A stretch of 45,040 bases of DNA from a plasmid. Location: the sequence record NZ_CP133434.1. One strand, written 5' to 3'. The position numbers and the translations under genes are program-made. Below the pieces are notes generated by a model. It saw only the letters and a program-made list of their open reading frames with translations, was not told the DNA's origin and ran no database searches. This document shows positions 4,326 to 25,578 of the stretch, piece after piece; position 1 is the stretch's first letter, and each line of letters begins with the position of its first letter.

Positions 4326-4970
4326 ATGACTTCAAATGTACCAACAAGCTTTGTCCGCGCTTATCTGAGAGCTTCAACAGCAGAACAGGATGCTTCGCGT
4401 GCCCTGGAAACTATCGAGGCTTTTGCCAGGGAAAGAGGCCTGATCATTTGCAGCTACTATATTGAGAATGAATCCGGCACCCGTCTTGAGCGCCCGGAAC
4501 TTTTTCGTCTTCTGAGAGATTGCCAACAAAATGACATTTTGCTTATCGAGGATGTGGACAGACTTTCCCGCCTGTCAGGGGAAGACTGGAATACGTTGAA
4601 GAAAATGATCCGGCAGAAAGACATCCGGGTTATGGCGGTGAATGTGCCGACGACATGGATTAATTCTGGTATGAGTGAGTTTGACAGCCGGTTGTTTGCA
4701 GCCATTAACGATATGCTGCTGGATATGCTGGCCGCAGTTGCCAGAAGGGACTATGAACAACGTCGGGAACGCCAGAAACAAGGGATAGAGAAAGCAAGGA
4801 AAGACGGCAAATATAAAGGGCGTAAACCTAATCAAGCCAGACATGATGCAATTATCAGGTTGATAGAAAGCGGTAGCTCCTGGACACAGGTACAGAAAGT
4901 GCTAGGGTGCAGCCGTGGCACAATCAGTAATGCGCTAAAACGTAAAACCGGGCAGAAATCCAGTAAGTAG
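4326..4970 (+). CDS. Serine recombinase (plasmid multimer resolvase)
   Basis: N-terminal VRAYLRASTAEQ, with the catalytic-Ser motif at the position typical of resolvases. A C-terminal HTH is present. The track ORF starts at 4308. Confidence 0.8.
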   Translation: MTSNVPTSFVRAYLRASTAEQDASRALETIEAFARERGLIICSYYIENESGTRLERPELFRLLRDCQQNDILLIEDVDRLSRLSGEDWNTLKKMIRQKDIRVMAVNVPTTWINSGMSEFDSRLFAAINDMLLDMLAAVARRDYEQRRERQKQGIEKARKDGKYKGRKPNQARHDAIIRLIESGSSWTQVQKVLGCSRGTISNALKRKTGQKSSK

Positions 4971-5124
4971 AGGAGTAGGGGGCTAATATACCTGCAAGGC
5001 AGGATATTAACTCAGGAGATTGGGTGTGTGGTGTTTAGTCAATGCATTTGAATATTGTAACTAAAATATGTTTTTATTAAAGGCCGGAGGTGGTTAGCCC
5101 CCGGCCTTAGTTACGTTTCCGCCA

Positions 5125-5208
5125 TCAGCCCATCAACTGGAGAAGGTAGCGAATCAGTTCAAGAAGCGAGATTAGTGCCCCCAGAACGATGATTGCTTTA
5201 TCAATCAT
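5125..5208 (-). CDS. dinQ: DinQ-like type I toxin peptide (27 aa, MIDKAIIVLGALISLLELIRYLLQLMG)
   Basis: Translated by hand from the minus strand. Near-identical to the E. coli DinQ peptide as I recall it. The SD GGAG sits inside the perfect hairpin ctccatataatggag. Confidence 0.6.
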   Translation of the reverse strand: MIDKAIIVLGALISLLELIRYLLQLMG

Positions 5209-5249
5209 CCGTTTACTCCATTATATGGAGCAGACTCCCGATACTTACT

Positions 5250-5375
5250 CTTACACTGCCTGTCATATCGGTTGTTCTTCGGTGTTGGTTGAAGACAGTT
5301 CCACTCCAGCCAGAGCCACCAACTCAGGGCTGGAAAACACAAAAAAGCCCGATTACCCGTCGGGTTTTTTTTGTG
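5250..5375 (+). ncRNA. Candidate agrB-like antisense sRNA ending at a bidirectional terminator (5346-5373)
   Basis: Stem gcccgattacccgtcgggc followed by T8 on the plus strand. The element overlaps the toxin 5' leader and is repeated at 16620-16712. Confidence 0.3.
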
Positions 5376-6019
5376 CCTGTCGTTTGGCTGTACTTCCGTT
5401 TTTTCCCCTTCATTTGAGGGATTTTTCTTTCATTTTTTGTTGCAGCCAGTACCGCTGATCGCGTTGGCCAACAGAACGATGCCGTTACCGGCATTATCAT
5501 GAATCCCATTTTTTCAGTAAGTTGCAGCATACAAAGTAATTAAAAAAACGTCATTTTTTGTTGATGGATGCAGTAGCGGTGGTGTGCTACGTGAAATCTG
5601 GGAAATGCTGGCGGGTAATTGACTCAATTTTTTAATCTCCGCACCTGTTTTTTTGGACGTGCCAGCAATTATGACCTGAAGCAGAGGTGCGTCCGACAAC
5701 AAAAATTCCGATCACCAGAAAAAATTTTGGACATTTTTTCCGATAATGCATTTTTGTCCAGGGGGATATGAACTACAGGGCAGGGCGAAAAGGAAGCGGT
5801 TATCTTGAATATCCATAGGATATGGGCACATATGCCGGAATAGGGCACCAGATAAAGGAAATGAATTCAGTGTATGTTGTAACTAATAGGGTCTGGACAG
5901 AATCATCTGAACGTCCAGTCGGGCGCTAATCTATAATAAATGACCGTAGAAGGGCCATTTCTACGGCAAAGTTCTGGAGATGATAAAATAAGAGCCTTAA
6001 ACAATAAAAGGGTTTGCTT

Positions 6020-6421
6020 ATGACACTGGACCAACTGCTTGAAATCCACGACCGCGCTGGGCTGAGCACCTATGAACAGGAAACAATTATATCTTTCATT
6101 AACCAGCGGCGAGGTGACTTTGGTGTAAAAGCGTTGCCGGAAATTATGCCTCCAGTATCTTGCGGCTGGATCTCCAGAAGAACAAAACAGCGTTCTCAGG
6201 AGCAGGCAGACGAAAATAGCTGGAATTATTATAAACAGAAGATTCAGGAATGGATAACGCTAATCGAATTGCATGAGGCATCACTTACCAGGGGGGAAAA
6301 GCTAAAGCGCTTTGTGGGAAAGCATAAATGGTGGTTAGGAGGCACTTGCGCAGTTATCGCATCAATTACAAGCACTGTGATAGCTAGCTGGATTCTTTCG
6401 TTATGGACTTGGGCTAACTGA
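6020..6421 (+). CDS. Hypothetical protein with C-terminal TM helix
   Basis: ATG 6020 follows aaaggg. The track ORF starts at an upstream TTG. Confidence 0.45.
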   Translation: MTLDQLLEIHDRAGLSTYEQETIISFINQRRGDFGVKALPEIMPPVSCGWISRRTKQRSQEQADENSWNYYKQKIQEWITLIELHEASLTRGEKLKRFVGKHKWWLGGTCAVIASITSTVIASWILSLWTWAN

Positions 6422-6757
6422 CGTGACAGAAGCTGCGTTACGTCCAAGTTGATAAAAAGTTGTTATCCACAGAGAACAGGGCGGTCATCCGGCGGGTTCA
6501 ATAATATGGTATTATTACAGCACCTTAAAAAATAAGGATTGCGGACGGATGATATATTGATAAAGGATACTCATGCGTGTAAAACGCAAAATACCCTGAG
6601 TAATCAGGGTATTAAACGCGGAAAAGTAAAGGTTGAGCGCTTTACATTTTCCATTCACACCAGAGGCGTGACTAAATCTAAAATTGATTCTACGGCAACG
6701 TTCAATCTACGTCAAATCGCCAATGGTTTTCCTGTTATGAAAATTACCGGAGGCTTC

Positions 6758-6868
6758 ATGTTGTTAACCATCATCGACACCTATCTTCATGCTTCATTAC
6801 TGACACAGATACTGGTAATCCCGTTTATCTGTGCGGTGGTGTGGGCGGTAAAGAAAATCCGGGTATAA
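6758..6868 (+). CDS. Candidate small hydrophobic peptide (36 aa, MLLTIIDTYLHASLLTQILVIPFICAVVWAVKKIRV)
   Basis: Strong SD ggagg 5 nt upstream of ATG 6758. The long track ORF 6539-6868 is probably mostly leader. Confidence 0.3.
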   Translation: MLLTIIDTYLHASLLTQILVIPFICAVVWAVKKIRV

Positions 6869-7018
6869 CTTGGGGTCTGACGCTCAGTGGAACGAAAACT
6901 CACGTTAAGGGATTTTGGTCATGAGATTATCAAAAAGGATCTTCACCTAGATCCTTTTAAATTAAAAATGAAGTTTTAAATCAATCTAAAGTATATATGA
7001 GTAAACTTGGTCTGACAG

Positions 7019-7891
<873 letters not shown>

Positions 7892-8061: not shown

Positions 8062-8782
<721 letters not shown>

Positions 8783-11700
8783 ATGCCCGTTGACTTTCTG
8801 ACCACTGAGCAGACTGAAAGCTATGGCAGATTCACCGGTGAACCGGATGAGCTTCAGCTGGCACGATATTTTCACCTTGATGAAGCAGACAAGGAATTTA
8901 TCGGAAAAAGCAGAGGTGATCACAACCGTCTGGGCATTGCCCTGCAAATTGGATGTGTCCGTTTTCTGGGCACCTTCCTCACCGATATGAATCATATTCC
9001 TTCCGGCGTCCGGCATTTTACCGCCAGACAGCTCGGGATTCGTGATATCACCGTTCTTGCAGAATACGGTCAGAGGGAAAATACCCGCCGTGAGCATGCA
9101 GCGCTGATACGTCAGCACTATCAGTATCGTGAATTTGCCTGGCCCTGGACATTTCGCCTTACCCGTCTTTTATATACCCGGAGCTGGATAAGCAACGAAC
9201 GTCCTGGCCTGCTTTTCGATCTGGCGACAGGGTGGCTTATGCAACATCGTATTATTCTCCCCGGAGCCACTACGCTGACCCGGTTGATTTCAGAGGTAAG
9301 GGAAAAGGCGACGTTGCGCCTGTGGAACAAACTGGCACTGATACCGTCAGCCGAACAGCGTTCACAGCTGGAGATGCTGCTGGGGCCAACTGATTGCAGC
9401 CGCCTGTCTTTACTGGAATCACTGAAAAAGGGCCCTGTGACCATCAGTGGTCCGGCGTTTAATGAAGCAATTGAACGCTGGAAAACTCTGAACGATTTTG
9501 GCCTGCATGCTGAAAACCTGAGTACACTCCCGGCTGTGCGCCTGAAAAATCTCGCACGTTATGCTGGTATGACTTCGGTGTTCAATATTGCCAGGATGTC
9601 ACCGCAGAAAAGGATGGCGGTTCTGGTTGCCTTTGTCCTTGCATGGGAAACGCTGGCGCTGGATGATGCATTGGACGTTCTGGACGCCATGCTGGCCGTT
9701 ATCATCCGTGACGCCAGAAAGATTGGGCAGAAAAAACGGCTCCGCTCGCTGAAGGATCTGGATAAATCTGCATTGGCGCTCGCCAGCGCATGTTCGTACC
9801 TGCTGAAAGAAGAAACACCGGACGAATCGATTCGTGCTGAGGTGTTCAGCTACATCCCAAGGCAAAAGCTGGCTGAAATCATCACGCTTGTCCGTGAAAT
9901 TGCCCGGCCCTCAGACGATAATTTTCATGAAGAAATGGTGGAGCAGTACGGGCGCGTTCGTCGTTTCCTGCCCCATCTGCTGAATACCGTTAAATTTTCA
10001 TCCGCACCTGCCGGGGTTACCACTCTGAATGCCTGTGACTACCTCAGCCGGGAGTTCAGCTCACGGCGGCAGTTTTTTGACGACGCACCAACGGAAATTA
10101 TCAGTCGGTCATGGAAACGGCTGGTGATTAACAAGGAAAAACATATCACCCGCAGGGGATACACGCTCTGCTTTCTCAGTAAACTGCAGGATAGTCTGAG
10201 GCGGAGGGATGTCTACGTTACCGGCAGTAACCGGTGGGGAGATCCTCGTGCAAGATTACTACAGGGTGCTGACTGGCAGGCAAACCGGATTAAGGTTTAT
10301 CGTTCTTTGGGGCACCCGACAGACCCGCAGGAAGCAATAAAATCTCTGGGTCATCAGCTTGATAGTCGTTACAGACAGGTTGCTGCACGTCTTTGCGAAA
10401 ATGAGGCTGTCGAACTCGATGTTTCTGGCCCGAAGCCCCGGTTGACAATTTCTCCCCTCGCCAGTCTTGATGAGCCGGACAGTCTGAAACGACTGAGCAA
10501 AATGATCAGTGATCTACTCCCTCCGGTGGATTTAACGGAGTTGCTGCTCGAAATTAACGCCCATACCGGATTTGCTGATGAGTTTTTCCATGCTAGTGAA
10601 GCCAGTGCCAGAGTTGATGATCTGCCCGTCAGCATCAGCGCCGTGCTGATGGCTGAAGCCTGCAATATCGGTCTGGAACCACTGATCAGATCAAATGTTC
10701 CTGCACTGACCCGACACCGGCTGAACTGGACAAAAGCGAACTATCTGCGGGCTGAAACTATCACCAGCGCTAATGCCAGACTGGTTGATTTTCAGGCAAC
10801 GCTGCCACTGGCACAGATATGGGGTGGAGGAGAAGTGGCATCTGCAGATGGAATGCGCTTTGTTACGCCAGTCAGAACAATCAATGCCGGACCGAACCGC
10901 AAATACTTTGGTAATAACAGAGGGATCACCTGGTACAACTTTGTGTCCGATCAGTATTCCGGCTTTCATGGCATCGTTATACCGGGGACGCTGAGGGACT
11001 CTATCTTTGTGCTGGAAGGTCTTCTGGAACAGGAGACCGGGCTGAATCCAACCGAAATTATGACCGATACAGCAGGTGCCAGCGAACTTGTCTTTGGCCT
11101 TTTCTGGCTGCTGGGATACCAGTTTTCTCCACGCCTGGCTGATGCCGGTGCTTCGGTTTTCTGGCGAATGGACCATGATGCCGACTATGGCGTGCTGAAT
11201 GATATTGCCAGAGGGCAATCAGATCCCCGAAAAATAGTCCTTCAGTGGGACGAAATGATCCGGACCGCTGGCTCCCTGAAGCTGGGCAAAGTACAGGTTT
11301 CAGTGCTGGTCCGTTCATTGCTGAAAAGTGAACGTCCTTCCGGACTGACTCAGGCAATCATTGAAGTGGGGCGCATCAACAAAACGCTGTATCTGCTTAA
11401 TTATATTGATGATGAAGATTACCGCCGGCGCATTCTGACCCAGCTTAATCGGGGAGAAAGTCGCCATGCCGTTGCCAGAGCCATCTGTCACGGTCAAAAA
11501 GGTGAGATAAGAAAACGATATACCGACGGTCAGGAAGATCAACTGGGCACACTGGGGCTGGTCACTAACGCCGTCGTGTTATGGAACACTATTTATATGC
11601 AGGCAGCCCTGGATCATCTCCGGGCGCAGGGTGAAACACTGAATGATGAAGATATCGCACGCCTCTCCCCGCTTTGCCACGGACATATCAATATGCTCGG

Positions 11701-11788
11701 CCATTATTCCTTCACGCTGGCAGAACTGGTGACCAAAGGACATCTGAGACCATTAAAAGAGGCGTCAGAGGCAGAAAACGTTGCTTAA
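8783..11788 (+). CDS. tnpA: Tn3-family transposase TnpA
   Basis: Starts MPVDFLTTEQTESYGRF at ATG 8783. The track ORF has a spurious 53-codon N-terminal extension. Confidence 0.92.
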   Translation: MPVDFLTTEQTESYGRFTGEPDELQLARYFHLDEADKEFIGKSRGDHNRLGIALQIGCVRFLGTFLTDMNHIPSGVRHFTARQLGIRDITVLAEYGQRENTRREHAALIRQHYQYREFAWPWTFRLTRLLYTRSWISNERPGLLFDLATGWLMQHRIILPGATTLTRLISEVREKATLRLWNKLALIPSAEQRSQLEMLLGPTDCSRLSLLESLKKGPVTISGPAFNEAIERWKTLNDFGLHAENLSTLPAVRLKNLARYAGMTSVFNIARMSPQKRMAVLVAFVLAWETLALDDALDVLDAMLAVIIRDARKIGQKKRLRSLKDLDKSALALASACSYLLKEETPDESIRAEVFSYIPRQKLAEIITLVREIARPSDDNFHEEMVEQYGRVRRFLPHLLNTVKFSSAPAGVTTLNACDYLSREFSSRRQFFDDAPTEIISRSWKRLVINKEKHITRRGYTLCFLSKLQDSLRRRDVYVTGSNRWGDPRARLLQGADWQANRIKVYRSLGHPTDPQEAIKSLGHQLDSRYRQVAARLCENEAVELDVSGPKPRLTISPLASLDEPDSLKRLSKMISDLLPPVDLTELLLEINAHTGFADEFFHASEASARVDDLPVSISAVLMAEACNIGLEPLIRSNVPALTRHRLNWTKANYLRAETITSANARLVDFQATLPLAQIWGGGEVASADGMRFVTPVRTINAGPNRKYFGNNRGITWYNFVSDQYSGFHGIVIPGTLRDSIFVLEGLLEQETGLNPTEIMTDTAGASELVFGLFWLLGYQFSPRLADAGASVFWRMDHDADYGVLNDIARGQSDPRKIVLQWDEMIRTAGSLKLGKVQVSVLVRSLLKSERPSGLTQAIIEVGRINKTLYLLNYIDDEDYRRRILTQLNRGESRHAVARAICHGQKGEIRKRYTDGQEDQLGTLGLVTNAVVLWNTIYMQAALDHLRAQGETLNDEDIARLSPLCHGHINMLGHYSFTLAELVTKGHLRPLKEASEAENVA

Positions 11789-11973: not shown

Positions 11974-12324
11974 ATGGAGCAAACCTTGGCTAAGGTAACC
12001 AGAATTCAGGCCGGAAGATACGCAGTCGATGATGGGCGTTGCATTATAAAAAATAACTCTGGGTGGCTTATTGTCGATGCTAATGGCGCTCATGATTTTG
12101 GACCTGTCCCCACATTAGCAGCAGCTAAGGAATATGTTGAGTCTGGTACTGTTCCGCTAAGGCAGCACAATTTTTCTACATCTCATGGTCGAAGACAAAG
12201 TAAAAAAGAATTTAATGCGTATTTGGCATCTGAAGCTAAAAATGGCAATCCAATGCCAGCCATTCTTTGGATAATTGTCCTTTGCATCATCTGCGGCATT
12301 GTAGTTGCAGTTCGAGGTTATTAA
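11974..12324 (+). CDS. Hypothetical protein with C-terminal TM anchor
   Basis: 116 aa. The C-terminus is AILWIIVLCIICGIVVAVRGY. Confidence 0.4.
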   Translation: MEQTLAKVTRIQAGRYAVDDGRCIIKNNSGWLIVDANGAHDFGPVPTLAAAKEYVESGTVPLRQHNFSTSHGRRQSKKEFNAYLASEAKNGNPMPAILWIIVLCIICGIVVAVRGY

Positions 12325-12407: not shown

Positions 12408-12917
12408 ATGGCAACTGAGTGGGTAGATGTGGCTGATAATGCCGTTAAAATTGGGCTGGGTGCATTAATCACCATTGTTGGTGGCTGGATTACACTGAAA
12501 TTAACACACTGCCACGAAATAAGAAAAGATGCAATAGCTCAGCGACTGCGGGATATAGATAAAAAAACTGACCGCTATATAGATTTTCTTTCTTCATCGC
12601 AAACGCTAATGCAGAAATATCTTTATGAATCATGTGATCCAGGTAGCGAGGACTACACCAATTATATGCGGTTGCATAATATTGTAAGCCTGACATCCTC
12701 CCCTGAATTGCGAATCTATGCTTTTGATACTCAGTCCAAAGTATCGCAATTTATCCTGCTCAGAAAGCCCAACGAACCAGAGGTTATTGATTCCTGTCGC
12801 AATGCCGCGAGAAACGCCGTTTCTGTGCTTCAGGGGGCAGTGAGTGCTGAATTGCTTCAGGATAAAGCAGCACTTCAGGACAAACAACATGCATGGTGGG
12901 CTTTCTGGCGAAAATAA
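12408..12917 (+). CDS. Hypothetical protein with N-terminal TM helix
   Basis: 169 aa. Residues 14-30 are hydrophobic. Confidence 0.4.
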   Translation: MATEWVDVADNAVKIGLGALITIVGGWITLKLTHCHEIRKDAIAQRLRDIDKKTDRYIDFLSSSQTLMQKYLYESCDPGSEDYTNYMRLHNIVSLTSSPELRIYAFDTQSKVSQFILLRKPNEPEVIDSCRNAARNAVSVLQGAVSAELLQDKAALQDKQHAWWAFWRK

Positions 12918-13022: not shown

Positions 13023-14924
13023 ATGGAAATAGTATCATTTAAAGTTTCTCAGTATAGGTCTATTTCAGGGGAGATATCCTCTGATAACTTTAATGGATTA
13101 ACCATTGTTGGGCAAAACAACAGTGGTAAAACAAACCTATTAAAAGCTATGAGGGTTTTTTTTGAAGGAAAATTTAATCCTGACTTATATGACTATGAAA
13201 AAGATAAGCCACATGGTGTTAAGCAAGGACAAACTAGTTTTGCTGTAAGATTTACTTTTTCTGAAAGTGAGCTAGATGATGTCTCTGAGGATTTGAGCCA
13301 AGACGATGATGATGACGATGATGACTCGATTATTGAACTTGGTGTTTTAGGGGAGCAAGAAGAACCTAGTAATTCTATTTCATTTGATGATGGCAGCTCT
13401 AAACAACAAGAATCAAAACCAACTCAATCAAGAGGCAGAAAGCTAAGTTTGAGAGATAGATATTTGCAGCTGTTTAACATGATTGATGACTCCAGGTTAA
13501 ATTCACCTCAAAACGAAGTGACCGTACATCTGACAATATCTAATAAAAACAATTACTTTTACACTGTCTTTAAAGGTTACAAGAGGAAACCTGAAGTAAC
13601 TTCCTCCATGTATACATCTGTTGAAAGAAGGTTCATAGAAAAAATACTTTCTAGTTTTGAGTGTGTGTATATACCATCGTCAAAAAGTATTGATGATATA
13701 TATCATAATCTATTAGTTCCATATGTTAGGAGTGAAGTAGCTTCAGCCATGAAAACATCGGTTCAAGTGATTCATGATAAACTGTTGGAAGTGTCTGAAA
13801 AGATAACAAATGAAATGATTCTAAGCGGTATAGATGACTGTAGCTTTATGATTAAAGCTCCGCCATCTCTTGATGAGTTATTTGGTCGCTTTGAGGTTTC
13901 AATAAAAGATACTATTGAGAATGTGATATCGAGTAAAGGTATGGGGCTACAATGCTTATCTTTATTTTCTTCATTTAAATCTATTTCAGAGAGAAAACTT
14001 ACTCTAGGTAAGAAAACGATTTGGATGGTTGAGGAGCCTGAGTCTTTCTTGCATCCCTCATTAGGCCGGTCATGTAATCACATTTTCAAATCACTGATGG
14101 ATGTTGCTTATGTTCTTATTACAACTCATTCCTTATCATTTGTCAGTGATGAGCCAAGTAAGATCATTGAGTTATATAAAGATGACGCCGGTGTTACAAA
14201 AGATAAAAAGCATGAAAAAAGATTTAATGCAGTTGCAAGCATAAGAGAAAATCTTGGGGTCAGATTTTCTGATTTCTTTAACATATCAAGTAGTGCAGTT
14301 TTCGTTGAAGGTATCACCGACAAACAATATATAGAATCAATATTGAAATTGACATCTGAAGATGATGAGTTTAAGAACAGATGGCCTTTTCTGAGGAGTG
14401 CTAAAGTTGATGAGTTTGGTGGAGTCAGTCAACTTGGGGGATTCTTGAAAGGGTGCTACGAGTTTATTTCTAAAGATGTCCCCGTAATATCTGTTTTTGA
14501 CGGTGATGAAGCTGGGGTCAAAGAAAGAACCAGATTACAAAGCTACTTTGGTAAAAAACAAATTAGATTTGAGTCAAATAAAGACTATATTTCTGTAAGA
14601 AGTGGTTTTGCTATTGAAGGCCTCTTCCCTGACGATTTCATTTCTGACGCAATGGAAACCCATCCGTCGTGGTTTATCGGAGGAAAATCTGTTGATGCCG
14701 ATGATGTAATTGAACCATTCAAAGTGCAAGATAATAAAAAAACTAACTTATTAAATTTCTTCCTGGAAAAATGTCGTGTTCAACCTATATGCGGTTGGAT
14801 TTCTCGGTGGGAAAAGGTGTTTAACGTCATAGACTCAGCCTTGCGAGATAAAAGTGAATCCATCACAAACAAAAAACGAACCGAAGATATTTCCGGTAAC
14901 ACTTCAGATCATCAAGCTGCATAA
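13023..14924 (+). CDS. OLD-family (or fused PARIS AriAB-like) ABC-type ATPase plus Toprim nuclease, candidate anti-phage protein
   Basis: Walker A GQNNSGKTNLLKAM. ABC signature/Walker B region IWMVEEPESFLHP with H-loop ITTHS. C-terminal Toprim VFVEGITDKQYIE with ISVFDGDEAG. A poly-Asp insert DDDDDDDD is present. AT-rich. Confidence 0.7.
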   Translation: MEIVSFKVSQYRSISGEISSDNFNGLTIVGQNNSGKTNLLKAMRVFFEGKFNPDLYDYEKDKPHGVKQGQTSFAVRFTFSESELDDVSEDLSQDDDDDDDDSIIELGVLGEQEEPSNSISFDDGSSKQQESKPTQSRGRKLSLRDRYLQLFNMIDDSRLNSPQNEVTVHLTISNKNNYFYTVFKGYKRKPEVTSSMYTSVERRFIEKILSSFECVYIPSSKSIDDIYHNLLVPYVRSEVASAMKTSVQVIHDKLLEVSEKITNEMILSGIDDCSFMIKAPPSLDELFGRFEVSIKDTIENVISSKGMGLQCLSLFSSFKSISERKLTLGKKTIWMVEEPESFLHPSLGRSCNHIFKSLMDVAYVLITTHSLSFVSDEPSKIIELYKDDAGVTKDKKHEKRFNAVASIRENLGVRFSDFFNISSSAVFVEGITDKQYIESILKLTSEDDEFKNRWPFLRSAKVDEFGGVSQLGGFLKGCYEFISKDVPVISVFDGDEAGVKERTRLQSYFGKKQIRFESNKDYISVRSGFAIEGLFPDDFISDAMETHPSWFIGGKSVDADDVIEPFKVQDNKKTNLLNFFLEKCRVQPICGWISRWEKVFNVIDSALRDKSESITNKKRTEDISGNTSDHQAA

Positions 14925-15957: not shown

Positions 15958-16050
15958 TGTCAGTTGTAGAGAGTTTCTCTTCCGGGCGAGTTACCAGCTC
16001 GTACCGGAACTGTAAAAAAGCCGACCTCACCAGTCGGTTTTTTTACGTCT
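15958..16050 (+). ncRNA. Candidate agrB-like antisense sRNA (second of two tandem repeats) with terminator
   Basis: Repeat unit beginning gtcagttgtagagagt (also at 15730). Terminator ccgacctcaccagtcgg plus T7 at 16018-16048. Confidence 0.3.
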
Positions 16051-16614: not shown

Positions 16615-16712
16615 GAGTGTTGGGTGTAGAGTATCTTCCTCCAGTCAGAGCCACCAACTCAAGGCTGGAAAACACAAAAAAGCCAAATTACCAGTCGGTT
16701 TTTTTTGTGCTT
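16615..16712 (+). ncRNA. Candidate agrB-like antisense sRNA, a copy of the 5281-5375 element
   Basis: ~85% identical to 5281-5375. Preceded by TAGACA...CATAAT promoter-like hexamers flanking the palindrome ctagacaacaggtgtctag. Confidence 0.3.
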
Positions 16713-18252: not shown

Positions 18253-18828
18253 ATGACGCAATCAGAGATGCTGAAATTAATTGCCAGACATGGTTATAAC
18301 GTTGGATTTGGCGCTAAGAAAAACTTTGCCACCTATGATCTAATTTGTAAGGCATCCGGTTGGATTAGCTTTATTTCTCTTGCTGTCGGTGTGTTCGCTC
18401 TTTTTATTCCTGAGCTAGCCACAAACGTAATTTCCGCGATATTAATTATATTTGGTGTTGCTACAATGTACATTCAGTTTTATGACTCGGAAAAGCAGAG
18501 TTATGAAAGTGCGGGGATTGAGCAGACAAAAATTTTTAATGAACTTGAAGTTATTTACCGCAACGTAAAAAGCGATGCAAACTTTGACTATCAGCATACA
18601 CAACAATCCATCGACGCTATCATGTCCCGGTTTTACGGCACGGTCATCAGCAAACAGATCTTCGGAAGTAACTGGTACGCACATTATAAATTTTACTGTG
18701 AATTTGAGAAAGCATGGGTTGAAGAAGAACTAAACTTGACACTGAAGGACAAAATCCCGCTTTCGCTCTGCTTTCTCGCCGGTCTGGCAATCATTTTCAT
18801 TATAGCTGTCATCTGGAAAATGCTCTGA
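18253..18828 (+). CDS. 2TM plus C-terminal TM membrane effector (SLATT-like), partner of the SMODS gene
   Basis: Follows the NTase after a 7-nt gap. Hydrophobic helices at residues ~36-77 and 168-188. Confidence 0.5.
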   Translation: MTQSEMLKLIARHGYNVGFGAKKNFATYDLICKASGWISFISLAVGVFALFIPELATNVISAILIIFGVATMYIQFYDSEKQSYESAGIEQTKIFNELEVIYRNVKSDANFDYQHTQQSIDAIMSRFYGTVISKQIFGSNWYAHYKFYCEFEKAWVEEELNLTLKDKIPLSLCFLAGLAIIFIIAVIWKML

Positions 18829-19001
18829 TGCTGCAGCCGATGAAAAATTAAGCAAGCTGACTGGCAAATATGCGATGTATAACCGGTATCATTATCCAGT
18901 GTACGTTCTATAAGGGGTGAGTTTGGATATGAGCTATAAATCTAATAAAAAGGCAGGGGGAAAAGATAGGATTTTTCACGTAGTCTCCGATAAAGTGACT
19001 A

Positions 19002-19826
19002 TTGATATTTAGCAATGAACATAAGGAAGGTACTGTGGGAACAACAAAAGATTGGGTTATACAAGTCGAGGAAAGTCGCCGTGAGGAATGGATACGAGAG
19101 CGGCTTTCCAGCCCAGATCTTGAGGAAGATTCTGAAGAATGGCAGTTACTTGAAAAGGACTATGACGAGTATCAGGATTTTCTTTCTGATATGGCTATGG
19201 AAGAATATGAAACCGAAAAATGGTTAAAACAGCATCCACATACAGAAATTTATAAAATAGCAATAAACCTTTTAGAACAAATAAAAGAAGAGGGAAAACA
19301 ATCTACAAGTGAAGTTTTCATAAAAATGAAAATCGCATACATTGTGACAATAATGGAAAACTGTCTTAGCGAAATGATTAAAAGCGTTGTATTGTCACAT
19401 AACAGATATGTAGAAAATGCCATAAGAAACATAAATGAACTGAAAGCAAAGAATATCTCTCTGTCTGAATTGATAAATAAAGAGTCTAATGCAAACAAAT
19501 ATGTACAGGAGTACCTTTCAGATATTCTTTATCATAGAATCCAACTGGTAGTTGAAATATATAAAGCAGTCCTGCAACCTAAGCAATATCCACGTTTTCC
19601 ACTCAAAAATATCAATGAATTGATGAAACTGAGGCATGACATAGTTCATCGTAACGGGAAAACGAAAACAACGGATGAAAAGATACATACATTCAATACA
19701 GCTACGCTCAATGATGCGTTTAAAGTTGTAGAGGAGTTTCTTAATAACATGATGAATTTGATCAGTGATGCTGTTGAGCATCATGAGAATGAGCAGATAG
19801 CCAGAGATCTTGAAGACGAGTTTTGA
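19002..19826 (+). CDS. HEPN-motif protein A (acidic N-terminal region, C-terminal Rx4H)
   Basis: C-terminal KLRHDIVHRNG. A likely start is GTG 19032, which follows aaggaagg. AT-rich. Confidence 0.45.
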   Translation: MIFSNEHKEGTVGTTKDWVIQVEESRREEWIRERLSSPDLEEDSEEWQLLEKDYDEYQDFLSDMAMEEYETEKWLKQHPHTEIYKIAINLLEQIKEEGKQSTSEVFIKMKIAYIVTIMENCLSEMIKSVVLSHNRYVENAIRNINELKAKNISLSELINKESNANKYVQEYLSDILYHRIQLVVEIYKAVLQPKQYPRFPLKNINELMKLRHDIVHRNGKTKTTDEKIHTFNTATLNDAFKVVEEFLNNMMNLISDAVEHHENEQIARDLEDEF

Positions 19827-21202
19827 GTAGTATTTTTACTATTCTGAAGGATTCTCAGAAACAAATGGAGCAGTACATGGCAACAAAAAAATACGAACTA
19901 ACAAAAGAATACTTTTTTCATGGTGAATTTTGGCACCAACTTGATGATAACAAAGGAAGATTTTCAGCACGAATTGAATATTCACCGTACCATGGTCTGA
20001 TTCTAGATTATTGTATTTCTGACAGTGAAAGCCCCAGAACATGTGAAATATTATATGGAGTCTTAAATACTGGAGAAAGATGTACTCTAATTGGGAAATT
20101 TGATTTCACACAAGGGAATATTCATTTTGATAAAGGGATTATCCATACTGGAAGGCATGGATTTCCCATAATGCTATTCAATGATTTTTATGCTCCCGAC
20201 TCAAAGATAGAATATTGTGATTTATCCTTGCACGGATTGCAAGAATTTATCCACCCTCACGGTTTTTTCACTCAATTGAAACATTTAGAACATCCAATAT
20301 TTATCGCAAAAGGAAACCATTGGACTCTTCAACTTGTCAACCATGTATCTTTTAGCGTAATTGGTGATGATCTATTAAACATAATAAATTGCCAAAACAA
20401 AGCCGCACTGGAGAACATAATTCATCAACTAAAAAAGACAAAAGAATTATACCCTGATGCTTTTTTCTCCATTAGAAAAGAACTTGTTTTCTACTTTAGG
20501 ATAAAATCATCTAATGATTTAGGAATAGAAGACCATATATCAAAGTGCTGGGATATTTCCGGGTTATTTTCAATTCTTCTGAACAAACCGACTCTTCCTG
20601 AAGAAATAAACATAAAGTTCAAGGGAAATGGTTCGAAGACACCATGTCTCTTAACAACGGGGTTTGAACAAAGAACTATTGACCTAGCGCTGAGAGAAAT
20701 AAAACATCAACTCCTTCCAATAAACAGGAAGCATATTAATCTTGGAAAGATATTCTGCAAATGGTTCAAAATAGCAGAAAGATATATGCCATTGACAATA
20801 ACATATCAGTATGAAACCGGTTTTCGAACACTGCATCAAGCTCATACTGATATTATATTGTTTGCGACTCAATTAGAAGCAATAAACAAAACAATAGGTG
20901 GCTCAAAAAATGAAAAATACATGAAACCCATTAATGAATATGCAAGTTTGTTTCTTATTCAAGAGATAGAGATGTTTTTTAAGAAATTCAACAATAAATC
21001 TATTGGTGAAAATATTGCTACACTCAGAAATGAATTAGCACATGTTGACCGCAAAAAGGAGTTAATGAACATATTGACGATTGGTGATTATGTTAAAATT
21101 GGAAACTACCTAAAAACAATTGTAACATCTTATCTGCTATCAGATTTAGGAATCAATAACATTATTATTGAAAAATATCAGGCTCAGACAATTCAAGAGT
21201 AA
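19823..21202 (+). CDS. HEPN-motif protein B (large N-terminal unknown domain, C-terminal Rx4H)
   Basis: IATLRNELAHVDRK near the C-terminus. Start overlaps the stop of gene A (TTG 19823), with an alternative ATG at 19877 preceded by ggag. Confidence 0.45.
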   Translation: MSSIFTILKDSQKQMEQYMATKKYELTKEYFFHGEFWHQLDDNKGRFSARIEYSPYHGLILDYCISDSESPRTCEILYGVLNTGERCTLIGKFDFTQGNIHFDKGIIHTGRHGFPIMLFNDFYAPDSKIEYCDLSLHGLQEFIHPHGFFTQLKHLEHPIFIAKGNHWTLQLVNHVSFSVIGDDLLNIINCQNKAALENIIHQLKKTKELYPDAFFSIRKELVFYFRIKSSNDLGIEDHISKCWDISGLFSILLNKPTLPEEINIKFKGNGSKTPCLLTTGFEQRTIDLALREIKHQLLPINRKHINLGKIFCKWFKIAERYMPLTITYQYETGFRTLHQAHTDIILFATQLEAINKTIGGSKNEKYMKPINEYASLFLIQEIEMFFKKFNNKSIGENIATLRNELAHVDRKKELMNILTIGDYVKIGNYLKTIVTSYLLSDLGINNIIIEKYQAQTIQE

Positions 21203-21371
21203 TAAAATATTATACAATTATCATTTAAATATAATAAGACGAGAAACGAGCAACGGAAAAGTAAAATCAATATCAATTTACCTCAATTTGCGCATTGAGG
21301 CCATTATCAACTCCAGTGCAACTAAACATGCTAATAAAGCCTCTAGAACAGAGGCTTTATATGAATATAGT

Positions 21372-21635
21372 TTAGCGTCTCTTCGCCCACTCTTTTTCAT
21401 CATCGGTGAGTTGTTCTTTATGCAAATAATCACCAGGGACAGGGGGAGGAGTAACCAGTTTAGGGCGCCCATTATCATCACGAACCGTCACCAGACCAAC
21501 TACCTCACCATTTTCTTTAAGCGCCCATGCAGCCAGTTGGTATACTGTTGACTTTCCTGCCACACCGGAGACATTATCGTGACGGAAATACCAGTCTGTC
21601 GCAGGGATAATTTGTTTGTAGGATGTATTACTCAT
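21372..21635 (-). CDS. Hypothetical protein (87 aa)
   Basis: Intact ORF in backbone-like GC. No motif recognised. Confidence 0.35.
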   Translation of the reverse strand: MSNTSYKQIIPATDWYFRHDNVSGVAGKSTVYQLAAWALKENGEVVGLVTVRDDNGRPKLVTPPPVPGDYLHKEQLTDDEKEWAKRR

Positions 21636-21685
21636 GGATTTTCTTCCTTAACAAAATGATAATATAAAACTATATCCTTGCCATA

Positions 21686-22147
21686 TTACTGCTCATCTGT
21701 TACTCCGTTCAAACTCTTATTGATACGAAAATCTTCCAGAGAACGCCCGGCTTTCAACGCTTCATCAATCGGTTTTGGCGCACGTCCACGACCAGACCAG
21801 TATTTCGTTTCACCATTTTCTTCAAATTGATACTTGGGTGGCGCTTTTGGTAACGTTTTTTTACGTGATTTTGGTGCTTCTTCGGACAGACCAAGCAGTT
21901 CTTCCGGTGAGAAACCCTCTCCGGCGATTAACTGAAGCAGTTCCTGACGTTTCCGTTCACGCTCTGCTCGTTCAGCCGCTTCACGTTCAGCATCTTCACG
22001 ACGTTCTTCAATAACAACGTTGAGCTTTTCCTGCATTTCGAGCAACTGCTCAAAATCAATCTCACGGGCAAACACACGCAATGAACGAATATTCATCATA
22101 GTCCGGCTGATAATGCCGTATTCATCTTCTTTAGTCAGTTCGCTCAT
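21686..22147 (-). CDS. hns: Plasmid H-NS-like nucleoid protein
   Basis: N-terminal coiled-coil. C-terminal ENGETKYWSGRGRAPKPI matches the H-NS DNA-binding loop (TWTGQGRTP). Confidence 0.85.
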   Translation of the reverse strand: MSELTKEDEYGIISRTMMNIRSLRVFAREIDFEQLLEMQEKLNVVIEERREDAEREAAERAERERKRQELLQLIAGEGFSPEELLGLSEEAPKSRKKTLPKAPPKYQFEENGETKYWSGRGRAPKPIDEALKAGRSLEDFRINKSLNGVTDEQ

Positions 22148-24612: not shown

Positions 24613-25578
24613 ATGATTTTAAGTAAGTATTTCACTCTAATAAAAAGGTGGGGCATGTTACATAAAAAATCAGCACAAGAAAATGTAGCCTTCGGGCTTG
24701 CTGTACTTAAATACTATCTTCGTTTCAACTCCAAAGAGAATTTACAAGATGCTAATGTGAGTTCGGAGGAATTGATAAGCAATTTAATAAACATTTTGAA
24801 AGATACTAATTTTGTTTGCACGTCAGAAATTTCAGCCACATATCCAGGAATAGATGCCTTAGACAAAGAAAATAAACTAGGCCTTCAGATAACACATACA
24901 AAAAATACTTCAAAAATAAATAAAACAATAGATAAAATACGCATTAATAAAGTTAACGAAAAAATTGACACCTTATATTTTTTCATTACATCGGAAAGGC
25001 AGAAAAAATACACTATCAAAGCACAATGTCCAAAACTAAATGTCACAACAAATAATATATTAGACTTTGATGACCTAGCTAAACTGTTATCGAAAAGTCA
25101 GGATAAACTGAGTAAAGCAGAATCCGAACTTATGAAAGCAATGCCTCGTCTCTACCAAGAAGGAAAAGAACGGTATCAAGCAATGCTTAATAACATTCTT
25201 GAAACCAGAAATAAACTAGATCGAAGAGTATTCACTGCTAACAAAATCTTAGAAGAACCTGAAGAAATGCTGTTGTCCCTCAAAGAGATCAGGATAGATA
25301 TACAAAAAGATGGCATAATGAACAAAGCCAATCCTGCTGTCTCTGATTCATTTAATAAAATAATAAATATTATTGATGATGTAGAGAGTAAAATTGCTGT
25401 ACAATATCCCGATGAATACAAAAAATATAAAGCAAAGATCCTTCCATCGTGGAATTCTCCAGAAAAAGAAGAATGCTTAGATATTTTAATGGCTATAAGA
25501 AAAGATGTTTTGAAACAAATAGACAATATTGATATTGAGGTAAATAAGCTAAAAAGCATTCTTGATAATAACATTTAG
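24613..25578 (+). CDS. Hypothetical AT-rich orphan protein (321 aa)
   Basis: Divergent from topB. Lys/Asn-rich with low GC. No motif recognised. Confidence 0.45.
   Translation: MILSKYFTLIKRWGMLHKKSAQENVAFGLAVLKYYLRFNSKENLQDANVSSEELISNLINILKDTNFVCTSEISATYPGIDALDKENKLGLQITHTKNTSKINKTIDKIRINKVNEKIDTLYFFITSERQKKYTIKAQCPKLNVTTNNILDFDDLAKLLSKSQDKLSKAESELMKAMPRLYQEGKERYQAMLNNILETRNKLDRRVFTANKILEEPEEMLLSLKEIRIDIQKDGIMNKANPAVSDSFNKIINIIDDVESKIAVQYPDEYKKYKAKILPSWNSPEKEECLDILMAIRKDVLKQIDNIDIEVNKLKSILDNNI

Follow-up and report, generated by a model that had tools for sequence, protein, structure and literature searches.

When two adjacent genes both encode HEPN-domain proteins, do they form one defense system, or do they simply lie side by side? 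This question is raised by positions 19,002 to 21,202 of a 45,040-nucleotide stretch of plasmid DNA (sequence record NZ_CP133434.1); the whole stretch is called the window here. Two plus-strand genes of this locus, A and B, follow each other directly, and each encodes a protein with the Rx4H motif of HEPN ribonucleases (RNases). A first-pass annotation, made from the sequence alone, considered them a translationally coupled and undescribed two-HEPN defense module. We instead assign a probability of about 0.7 to the explanation that A and B, each a single-gene cassette for a predicted HEPN RNase, are independent of each other and came to be neighbors in the variable slot of IncX1 plasmids. In our opinion, it would be wrong to list the locus as a new two-HEPN system.

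Two HEPN proteins from unrelated families

Gene A (19035..19826, plus strand) encodes a HEPN protein of the RiboL-PSP type with 263 amino acids (aa; RefSeq WP_000537390.1). It matches Pfam PF18735 (HEPN_RiboL-PSP) over profile positions 11-189 of 191, with 30.6 bits against a gathering score of 28.4 (E 4e-7). This margin is small, and the same precomputed assignment is found in many A homologues. Residues ~1-87 of the protein form a conserved N-terminal region that is acidic and helical, and residues ~88-254 form a HEPN domain, which shows the four-helix up-down HEPN fold. The acidic N-terminus, already pointed out in the first-pass annotation, has 23 aspartate and glutamate residues versus 9 lysine and arginine residues in its first 75 positions, and an isoelectric point of 4.3. 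The Rx4H motif of A, RHDIVH, is encoded at 19632..19649 (plus strand) and spans R200 to H205 of the 263-aa protein, with the arginine codon at 19632-19634 and the histidine codon at 19647-19649. Across 25 homologues, down to 31% identity, R200, H201, D202, I203, V204, H205, R206 and G208 are invariant, forming the block RHDIVHRxG; other invariant positions include W19, L24 and W63 in the N-terminal region.

Gene B (19877..21202, plus strand) encodes a 441-aa protein (RefSeq WP_000201787.1) that combines two Pfam domains. Its N-terminal part, which had been left as an unassigned domain of ~380 aa with ApeA as one of the leads, matches ApeA_NTD1 (PF18862; E 4.7e-23, profile positions 3-271 of 271). 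The C-terminal part matches HEPN_Apea (PF18739; E 9.7e-9, 36.2 bits against a cut-off of 24.4, profile positions 25-133 of 136). On the plus strand, the beta-rich N-terminal domain is encoded at ~19919-20764 and the helical HEPN domain at ~20861-21157. An AlphaFold2 model of B, with a predicted local distance difference score of 89 and a predicted template modeling score of 0.85, agrees: its strands end at residue 259, and helices occupy residues 289-439. The motif RNELAH is encoded at 21026..21043 (plus strand) and spans R384 to H389 of the 441-aa protein (arginine codon 21026-21028, histidine codon 21041-21043). Among 26 homologues, the most distant at 30% identity, R384, E386, A388 and H389 are invariant, and N385 is conserved in 90% or more. 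Judged by clustering, the B family is small and uniform: it comprises 301 clusters at 50% identity among 1.84 billion representatives, nearly all of them ~440 aa long with full-length matches.

Both motifs had been read correctly in the first-pass annotation, as LRHDIVH in A and LRNELAH in B. A lone Rx4H string is weak evidence; by a rough estimate, chance alone would put one into about a third of proteins this long. The HEPN calls owe their significance to the profile matches and to the invariance of the motifs in homologues, and not to the string by itself. The two HEPN domains are unrelated to each other: alignment of the A family with the B family by hhalign showed no relationship, and the possibility that A and B are diverged duplicates was dropped.

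The label 'undescribed', which the first-pass annotation considered for the pair, does not fit the two families. A computational survey of 2013 (PMC3710099) already listed both, and RefSeq labels both proteins as HEPN domain-containing. Other collections have less to offer. PADLOC gave no match of any kind for A, and in PHROGs A matches only a family of unknown function. An NCBIfam search gave no matches, and neither A nor B had a match in PDB sequence searches, whether the query was a single sequence or a family profile.

Each gene occurs without the other

The genomic contexts of the homologues speak for independence. Among 19 genome loci with B homologues (30-43% identity), 18 contain no A-like open reading frame (ORF), the exception being Cellvibrio fibrivorans. 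The genes 5' of the B homologues are unrelated and encode UmuC, a DEAD helicase, GNAT, RelA_SpoT and portal proteins. Searches of the upstream ORFs with relaxed hidden Markov models and with Pfam uncovered no hidden divergent HEPN gene in this position. The nearest relatives of B (66-70% identity) are solo genes at the end of P2-like prophages, where they follow cI-int and begin 2-19 nt past the stop codon of the integrase gene. For P2, the int-att end has been reported to be a minor defense hotspot (PMC13586616). A is absent from all five B homologues that were looked up, four in P2-like prophages and one at a chromosomal locus of Serratia. It is likewise absent from all eight viral loci with B homologues in IMG/VR; five of these share the same ~335-aa upstream ORF, a presumed (unscanned) integrase, and in a sixth B follows a portal gene (L159; L numbers denote individual loci). 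In total, about 30 contexts of B lack A.

The same holds for A. Outside the IncX1 pair, B is absent from 100 A-like metagenomic and viral loci, 75 of which are informative because the sequence continues downstream of the A-like gene for 1.5 kb or more. Solo copies of A were also seen in Serratia, Pectobacterium, Aeromonas and Pseudoalteromonas, as well as in prophage regions of the lambdoid type. Diverged A-like genes are present on 34 plasmids of Yersinia, Pantoea, Serratia, Erwinia and other genera; diverged B genes are found on plasmids only in Synechococcus (3) and Shewanella (1). Clustering of the neighbors revealed no universal partner of A and no neighbor family that recurs across kinds of element. 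The largest recurrent sets (10-13 loci) come from a single group of related elements, among them viral contigs of ~90 kb, and smaller shared sets (7-9 loci) include a UmuC-type ORF. Since each family lives solo in many elements, each must be able to work alone, and the composite A:B active site proposed in the first-pass annotation is not needed.

The most telling evidence is in the plasmids themselves, where A and B can be seen to differ in origin. The nearest relatives of A (80-81% identity) occupy the same slot in sister IncX plasmids, in the order resolvase, A and hns-hha-topB, without B. In one of these plasmids A is followed by a CxxCxxCC-domain gene and in the other by nothing. DNA homology (86%) between the window and these plasmids begins at 18938 and extends to 19849, breaking off 23 nt past the stop codon of A. 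It ends at 19849 in one plasmid (L169) and at 19824 in the other (L168), and it resumes only at ~21717-21727, in hns. This break between A and B indicates that A is a resident gene of the slot and that B is a separately acquired cassette.

Across diverged homologues and elements, A and B were not found together, except in the IncX1 lineage (at least 95% identity) and in Cellvibrio. The HEPN fold (for B, as predicted from its profile match and its helical C-terminal part), the conserved motifs and the mobile or defense-related context that the first-pass annotation had expected of its module are all present, but the co-occurrence of orthologues that it had also expected is missing. Pairing limited to one plasmid lineage and a single distant case does not amount to a conserved two-gene module.

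Gene starts, spacing and transcription

The proposed translational coupling started from a real feature of the sequence. The longest mechanical ORFs of A (19002-19826, 274 aa, TTG start at 19002) and B (19823-21202, 459 aa, TTG start at 19823) are both on the plus strand and overlap by stop and start in the TTGA at 19823-19826. However, the TTGA is unlikely to contain the true start of B. The RefSeq start of B is the ATG at 19877 (441 aa), which has a GGAG 5 nt on its 5' side, and the annotation of plasmid pSE34 uses an alternative ATG at 19865. Full-length B homologues are nearly all 439-446 aa long and align from the RefSeq methionine. The RefSeq and pSE34 starts, the lengths of the homologues and the spacing in P2-like prophages together suggest that the overlap is probably not biological. 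Gene A most likely starts at the RefSeq GTG at 19035 (263 aa), which is preceded by the Shine-Dalgarno-like AAGGAAGG at 19023-19030. With the likely start codons, a gap of 38-50 nt separates A from B, and there is no overlap that could couple their translation.

The spacer (19827..19876, plus strand) contains the homology breakpoint at ~19849 and, further on, the GGAG ahead of the ATG of B. Since it is short, co-transcription of A and B from upstream of A is likely. The non-coding stretch 5' of A (18938..19034, plus strand), which is homologous to the sister IncX plasmids and includes AAGGAAGG, is the presumed 5' untranslated region or promoter region of A. Its role as a promoter is presumptive, as a promoter scan of 18700-21700 did not find a strong sigma-70 consensus in it. 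Over the same region, predicted promoters and terminators were at or below the number expected from shuffled sequence, a result that is neutral on whether B has a promoter of its own.

Pairing within IncX1 and alternative explanations

Several observations weigh against the independence of A and B. Inside the IncX1 lineage, A and B are without exception co-inherited: some 81 plasmids have both genes at a minimum of 95% identity, and the locus is present in 47 of 5426 complete E. coli genomes, where every match spans at least 80% of the two-gene stretch. They are on the same strand, and the narrow gap between them makes a single transcript probable. The pair in Cellvibrio fibrivorans (L010), the sole one outside IncX1, has an A-type gene at 4937-5770 and an ApeA_NTD1 gene at 6001-7338, in the same order and strand as in IncX1 and with a gap of 230 nt. 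It is a second, independent pairing of the A type with the B type, which, for families this rare, exceeds our expectation from chance. In addition, a Foldseek search of the PDB returned nothing significant for the model of either protein. On the other side, natural variants exist, one plasmid with A frameshifted and B intact and another with B frameshifted and A intact; they speak weakly against a toxin-antidote dependence, but both could be sequencing errors.

Alternatively, A and B could serve plasmid maintenance or competition, as toxin-like HEPN RNases for post-segregational killing or for the exclusion of rival elements, in the manner of HEPN toxins of toxin-antitoxin systems. Next to the locus are type I toxins of the DinQ kind together with AgrB antisense RNAs, and a distant protein named ApeA reportedly could not be transformed, presumably on account of toxicity (10.64898/2026.03.20.713152). 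Against such a role, which we consider unlikely, the contexts examined contain no antitoxin gene beside A or B. This includes the MNT nucleotidyltransferase gene of HepT/MNT toxin-antitoxin systems, which is adjacent to neither gene, here or in the homologue contexts. The solo genes occupy cargo positions of prophages, which are typical of defense or lysogenic-conversion genes, and a frameshift in either gene is tolerated.

A true two-component HEPN-HEPN system could also exist in IncX1 and Cellvibrio, in which A regulates or guards B, perhaps by way of the acidic N-terminus of A, or in which both proteins form a heteromeric RNase with a composite site. Strand, spacing and strict co-inheritance would fit such a system, as would the independent pair of the same order in Cellvibrio. 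The pair also persists without its neighbor in the slot, a cyclic oligonucleotide-based antiphage signaling system (CBASS), and after a move to the chromosome. CBASS is absent from pSE34 and other IncX1 plasmids that carry A and B, and a chromosomal copy has kept the pair with only a SLATT fragment. A role of A and B as accessory genes of CBASS would call for co-inheritance with the cyclase-effector pair, which is not seen in these plasmids or in the chromosomal copy. Nevertheless, a two-component system of A and B is improbable. The nearest relatives of A and of B each live without the other, as do the remaining unpaired contexts (about 30 for B and 75 informative ones for A), and the homology breakpoint falls between the two genes. 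Variants with a frameshift in a single gene occur, and the HEPN domains belong to unrelated families. The A-type protein of Cellvibrio is just 22% identical over 143 residues of the HEPN part, and its N-terminus, also acidic, is different.

The twofold occurrence in IncX1 and Cellvibrio may be accommodated by a looser arrangement, in which an A-type protein tunes, guards or extends an ApeA_NTD1 RNase and both parts also work alone. We give a facultative partnership of this kind equally little credence. More likely, each family is a candidate single-gene anti-phage RNase that is missed by current defense finders and is unrelated to characterized ApeA.

Relationship to ApeA and other HEPN systems

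The Pfam names of the B domains invite comparison with ApeA, a single-gene defense protein (Gao 2020) that forms doughnut-shaped oligomers of HEPN dimers (10.64898/2026.01.26.701840). It cleaves tRNA anticodon loops once its pocket binds 5'-phosphorylated deoxydinucleotides (10.64898/2026.01.26.701840), and it also cleaves the genomes of single-stranded RNA phages (10.64898/2026.03.20.713152). Using the partial insert given in Table S5 of the latter study, the full Ec1ApeA gene (601 aa; L162:3001-4806) was recovered from the E. coli chromosome NZ_CP042899.1. As a positive control, Ec1ApeA scored 1389 bits on the PADLOC ApeA model PDLC02157. Neither Ec1ApeA nor its 17 homologues match Pfam HEPN_Apea or ApeA_NTD1. 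Conversely, B has no match to PDLC02157 at E values up to 1 and none in NCBIfam; its only PADLOC match is to Cas13-ApeA (6e-4). Profile-profile alignment of the B family with the 17 Ec1ApeA homologues covers 40 columns around RN[EK]xAH, with a probability of 0.9% and an E value of 0.06. The ApeA structures solved so far are described as mainly alpha-helical and as containing N and Mid domains (10.64898/2026.01.26.701840), whereas the N-terminal 260 residues of B are beta-rich.

The missing cross-matches, the alignment restricted to the motif and the different N-terminal parts place B, at the level of sequence and predicted structure, outside the experimentally defined ApeA family and inside the computational ApeA_NTD1 family of Anantharaman et al. 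2013 (PMC3710099). In architecture, B is identical to the Pfam ApeA/BMEI1217 family (PF18862 plus PF18739), in which a mostly beta N-terminal domain of ~300 aa is fused to HEPN (PMC3710099). This family is known from computation alone. Its reported context is restriction-modification operons in epsilonproteobacteria (PMC3710099), unlike that of B, which is found in IncX1 plasmids and at the ends of P2-like prophages. The name ApeA thus stands for two groups without detectable homology to each other, the Pfam ApeA_NTD1/HEPN_Apea family, including B, and the defense protein studied experimentally. Mechanisms published for the latter are not simply transferable to the former.

B nevertheless resembles characterized ApeA in several respects. 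Both are single polypeptides with a presumed N-terminal sensor and a C-terminal HEPN domain with RNxxxH, and both are found as solo mobile cassettes. By analogy, B may work like ApeA, as a HEPN RNase activated by infection. The differences lie in size (~600 aa versus 441 aa), in the helical N and Mid domains versus the beta-rich N-terminal domain of B, and in the lack of detectable sequence homology beyond the catalytic motif. In spite of the domain names, the shared RN[EK]xAH motif and the single-gene mobile cassettes that B homologues form as ApeA does (10.64898/2026.01.26.701840), these results make it very improbable that B is a short member of the characterized family working as Ec1ApeA and Ec2ApeA do, with doughnut oligomers that detect deoxydinucleotides or phage RNA through a ligand pocket and cut tRNA anticodon loops.

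For A, the closest described group is the RiboL-PSP-HEPN family (PF18735), with which it shares a score above the Pfam cut-off, the conserved RHxxxH motif and the HEPN fold. 'Ribo L-PSP-HEPN' of Anantharaman 2013 (PMC3710099) is distantly related to AbiD/AbiF, and the family is associated with a fusion to endoRNase L-PSP and with a ParB neighbor (PMC3710099). A differs in having neither the fusion nor the neighbor, and in having its own conserved, acidic, helical N-terminal region. Three HEPN defense systems, PD-T4-2, PD-T4-5 and PD-T7-3, are listed under PF18735 (PMC10952713). Because PADLOC gave A no match, A is, on present models, no close relative of any of them. No relationship to HepT/MNT or to prophage HepS, a single-protein HEPN defense, was detected for A or B at the sequence level.

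A possible mechanism

We infer the RNase activity, the homodimerization, the trigger and the anti-phage role of A and B as follows, with less confidence in these biochemical details than in the independence of the two genes. A would be the older resident of the slot, and a B-type cassette, of which the nearest relatives lie at the integrase end of P2-like prophages, would have been placed just downstream. Each protein would homodimerize through its own HEPN domain, creating a composite Rx4H RNase site. The N-terminal part of each protein would keep that protein inactive; in B this part is the beta-rich ApeA_NTD1 domain, and in A it is the conserved region that is acidic and helical. A phage-derived cue would then lead each protein to cleave RNA (tRNA or mRNA), and phage growth would be stopped by abortive infection or growth arrest. 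A and B would be co-transcribed merely through adjacency, and neither would require the other. Both are probably anti-phage proteins.

Both families are compact and mobile, occupying cargo positions in prophages, integrative and conjugative elements and plasmids, and both go unrecognized by PADLOC v2. They are reasonable and cheap candidates for a single-gene anti-phage function.

The IncX1 accessory slot

The 2.5-kb A-B locus has 100% identity to conjugative plasmids of the IncX1 type from Salmonella and E. coli, with 82 plasmid matches. These include the 40-kb reference plasmid NZ_CP037880.1, which is typed as IncX1/IncX3, MOBP and MPF_T. A and B lie in the accessory region, between a block of ParA, resolvase and DinQ-like type I toxin genes and the hns-hha-topB block. 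The defense-rich surroundings described in the first-pass annotation were confirmed: the neighbors include a CBASS pair (SMODS/AGS_C cyclase and SLATT_6 effector), an OLD-family ATPase (13023-14924, plus strand) and the DinQ-like type I toxin genes. Its AT-rich island is real as well, with a GC content of 0.33-0.35 at 19-21 kb against 0.42-0.52 across much of the backbone, but it is not unique, since further accessory stretches of the window are similarly AT-rich. Besides CBASS and the OLD-family ATPase, the slot also collects resistance transposons.

In Salmonella and E. coli, IncX1 plasmids are a widespread vehicle of resistance genes. Their slot holds up to four presumptive defense modules (the OLD-family ATPase, CBASS, A and B), which may affect the phage susceptibility of plasmid-bearing strains. 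A literature search for IncX1 together with HEPN returned only author-name matches.

Downstream of B, a convergent 87-aa ORF (21372-21635, minus strand) has no match in Pfam or PADLOC. It was ruled out as a third component of the locus, for it is present in 272 plasmids of Enterobacterales, Pseudomonas, Burkholderia and Ralstonia, far above the number with B, and usually adjoins plasmid hns. As a backbone gene it is widespread, and some records mislabel it as 'methionyl-tRNA formyltransferase'.

Upstream in the window, the ATPase at 13023-14924 is an OLD/Gabija-A-like ABC ATPase, which matches the PADLOC models Old (5e-19), AriA (1e-17) and several of GajA. Two conserved small ORFs on its 5' side (11974-12324 and 12408-12917) have no Pfam or PADLOC match. 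The AgrB antisense small RNA has two Rfam matches (15960-16046 and 16620-16707, plus strand) of 56 and 52 bits against a gathering score of 40. Both adjoin genes that the annotation of the reference plasmid gives as DinQ-like (dqlB) toxins, a layout that points to a tandem of two type I toxin-antitoxin loci immediately 5' of CBASS. A 1054-aa transposase of the Tn3 family (8624-11788, plus strand; DDE_Tnp_Tn3, E 3e-148) is encoded in a GC-rich stretch (~0.52). The feature table of NZ_CP037880.1 does not contain this gene; therefore, the window probably has an extra transposon insertion relative to that plasmid. Beside topB, the gene at 24613-25578 (plus strand) encodes a SMEK-domain protein (PF21941, E 3.5e-24) with a PADLOC match to Aga_REase-PNTD1-PNTD2 (2.5e-16), and it may be further defense-related cargo.

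Neighborhoods of diverged homologues

Some distant homologues lie in neighborhoods of their own. On a Synechococcus plasmid (L045), a distant B homologue follows genes for a DEAD/DEAH helicase and a GIY-YIG nuclease, and genes for a Swt1-type HEPN protein and an N-6 DNA methylase are near. Others follow a RelA_SpoT-domain gene (L161), umuC (L012) or an unscanned ORF of the same size, 425 aa (L160). These distant contexts look varied and defense-related in appearance.

A-like genes with ~36% identity are found in a conserved neighborhood common to the large viral contigs L068 and L130-L135, several of which are 88-95 kb long; these contigs are possibly phage-plasmids. On the Serratia plasmid NZ_CP117172.1 (L044), a DUF2726 gene lies 10 nt 5' of a diverged A-like gene. 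On the Yersinia plasmid NZ_CP028489.1 (L043), the A-like gene stands between an upstream gene for a 227-aa hypothetical protein and a downstream CAAX protease gene. Finally, a DUF5677 gene on the opposite strand lies downstream of the diverged A-like gene both in Pectobacterium and in a viral contig (L042, L127).

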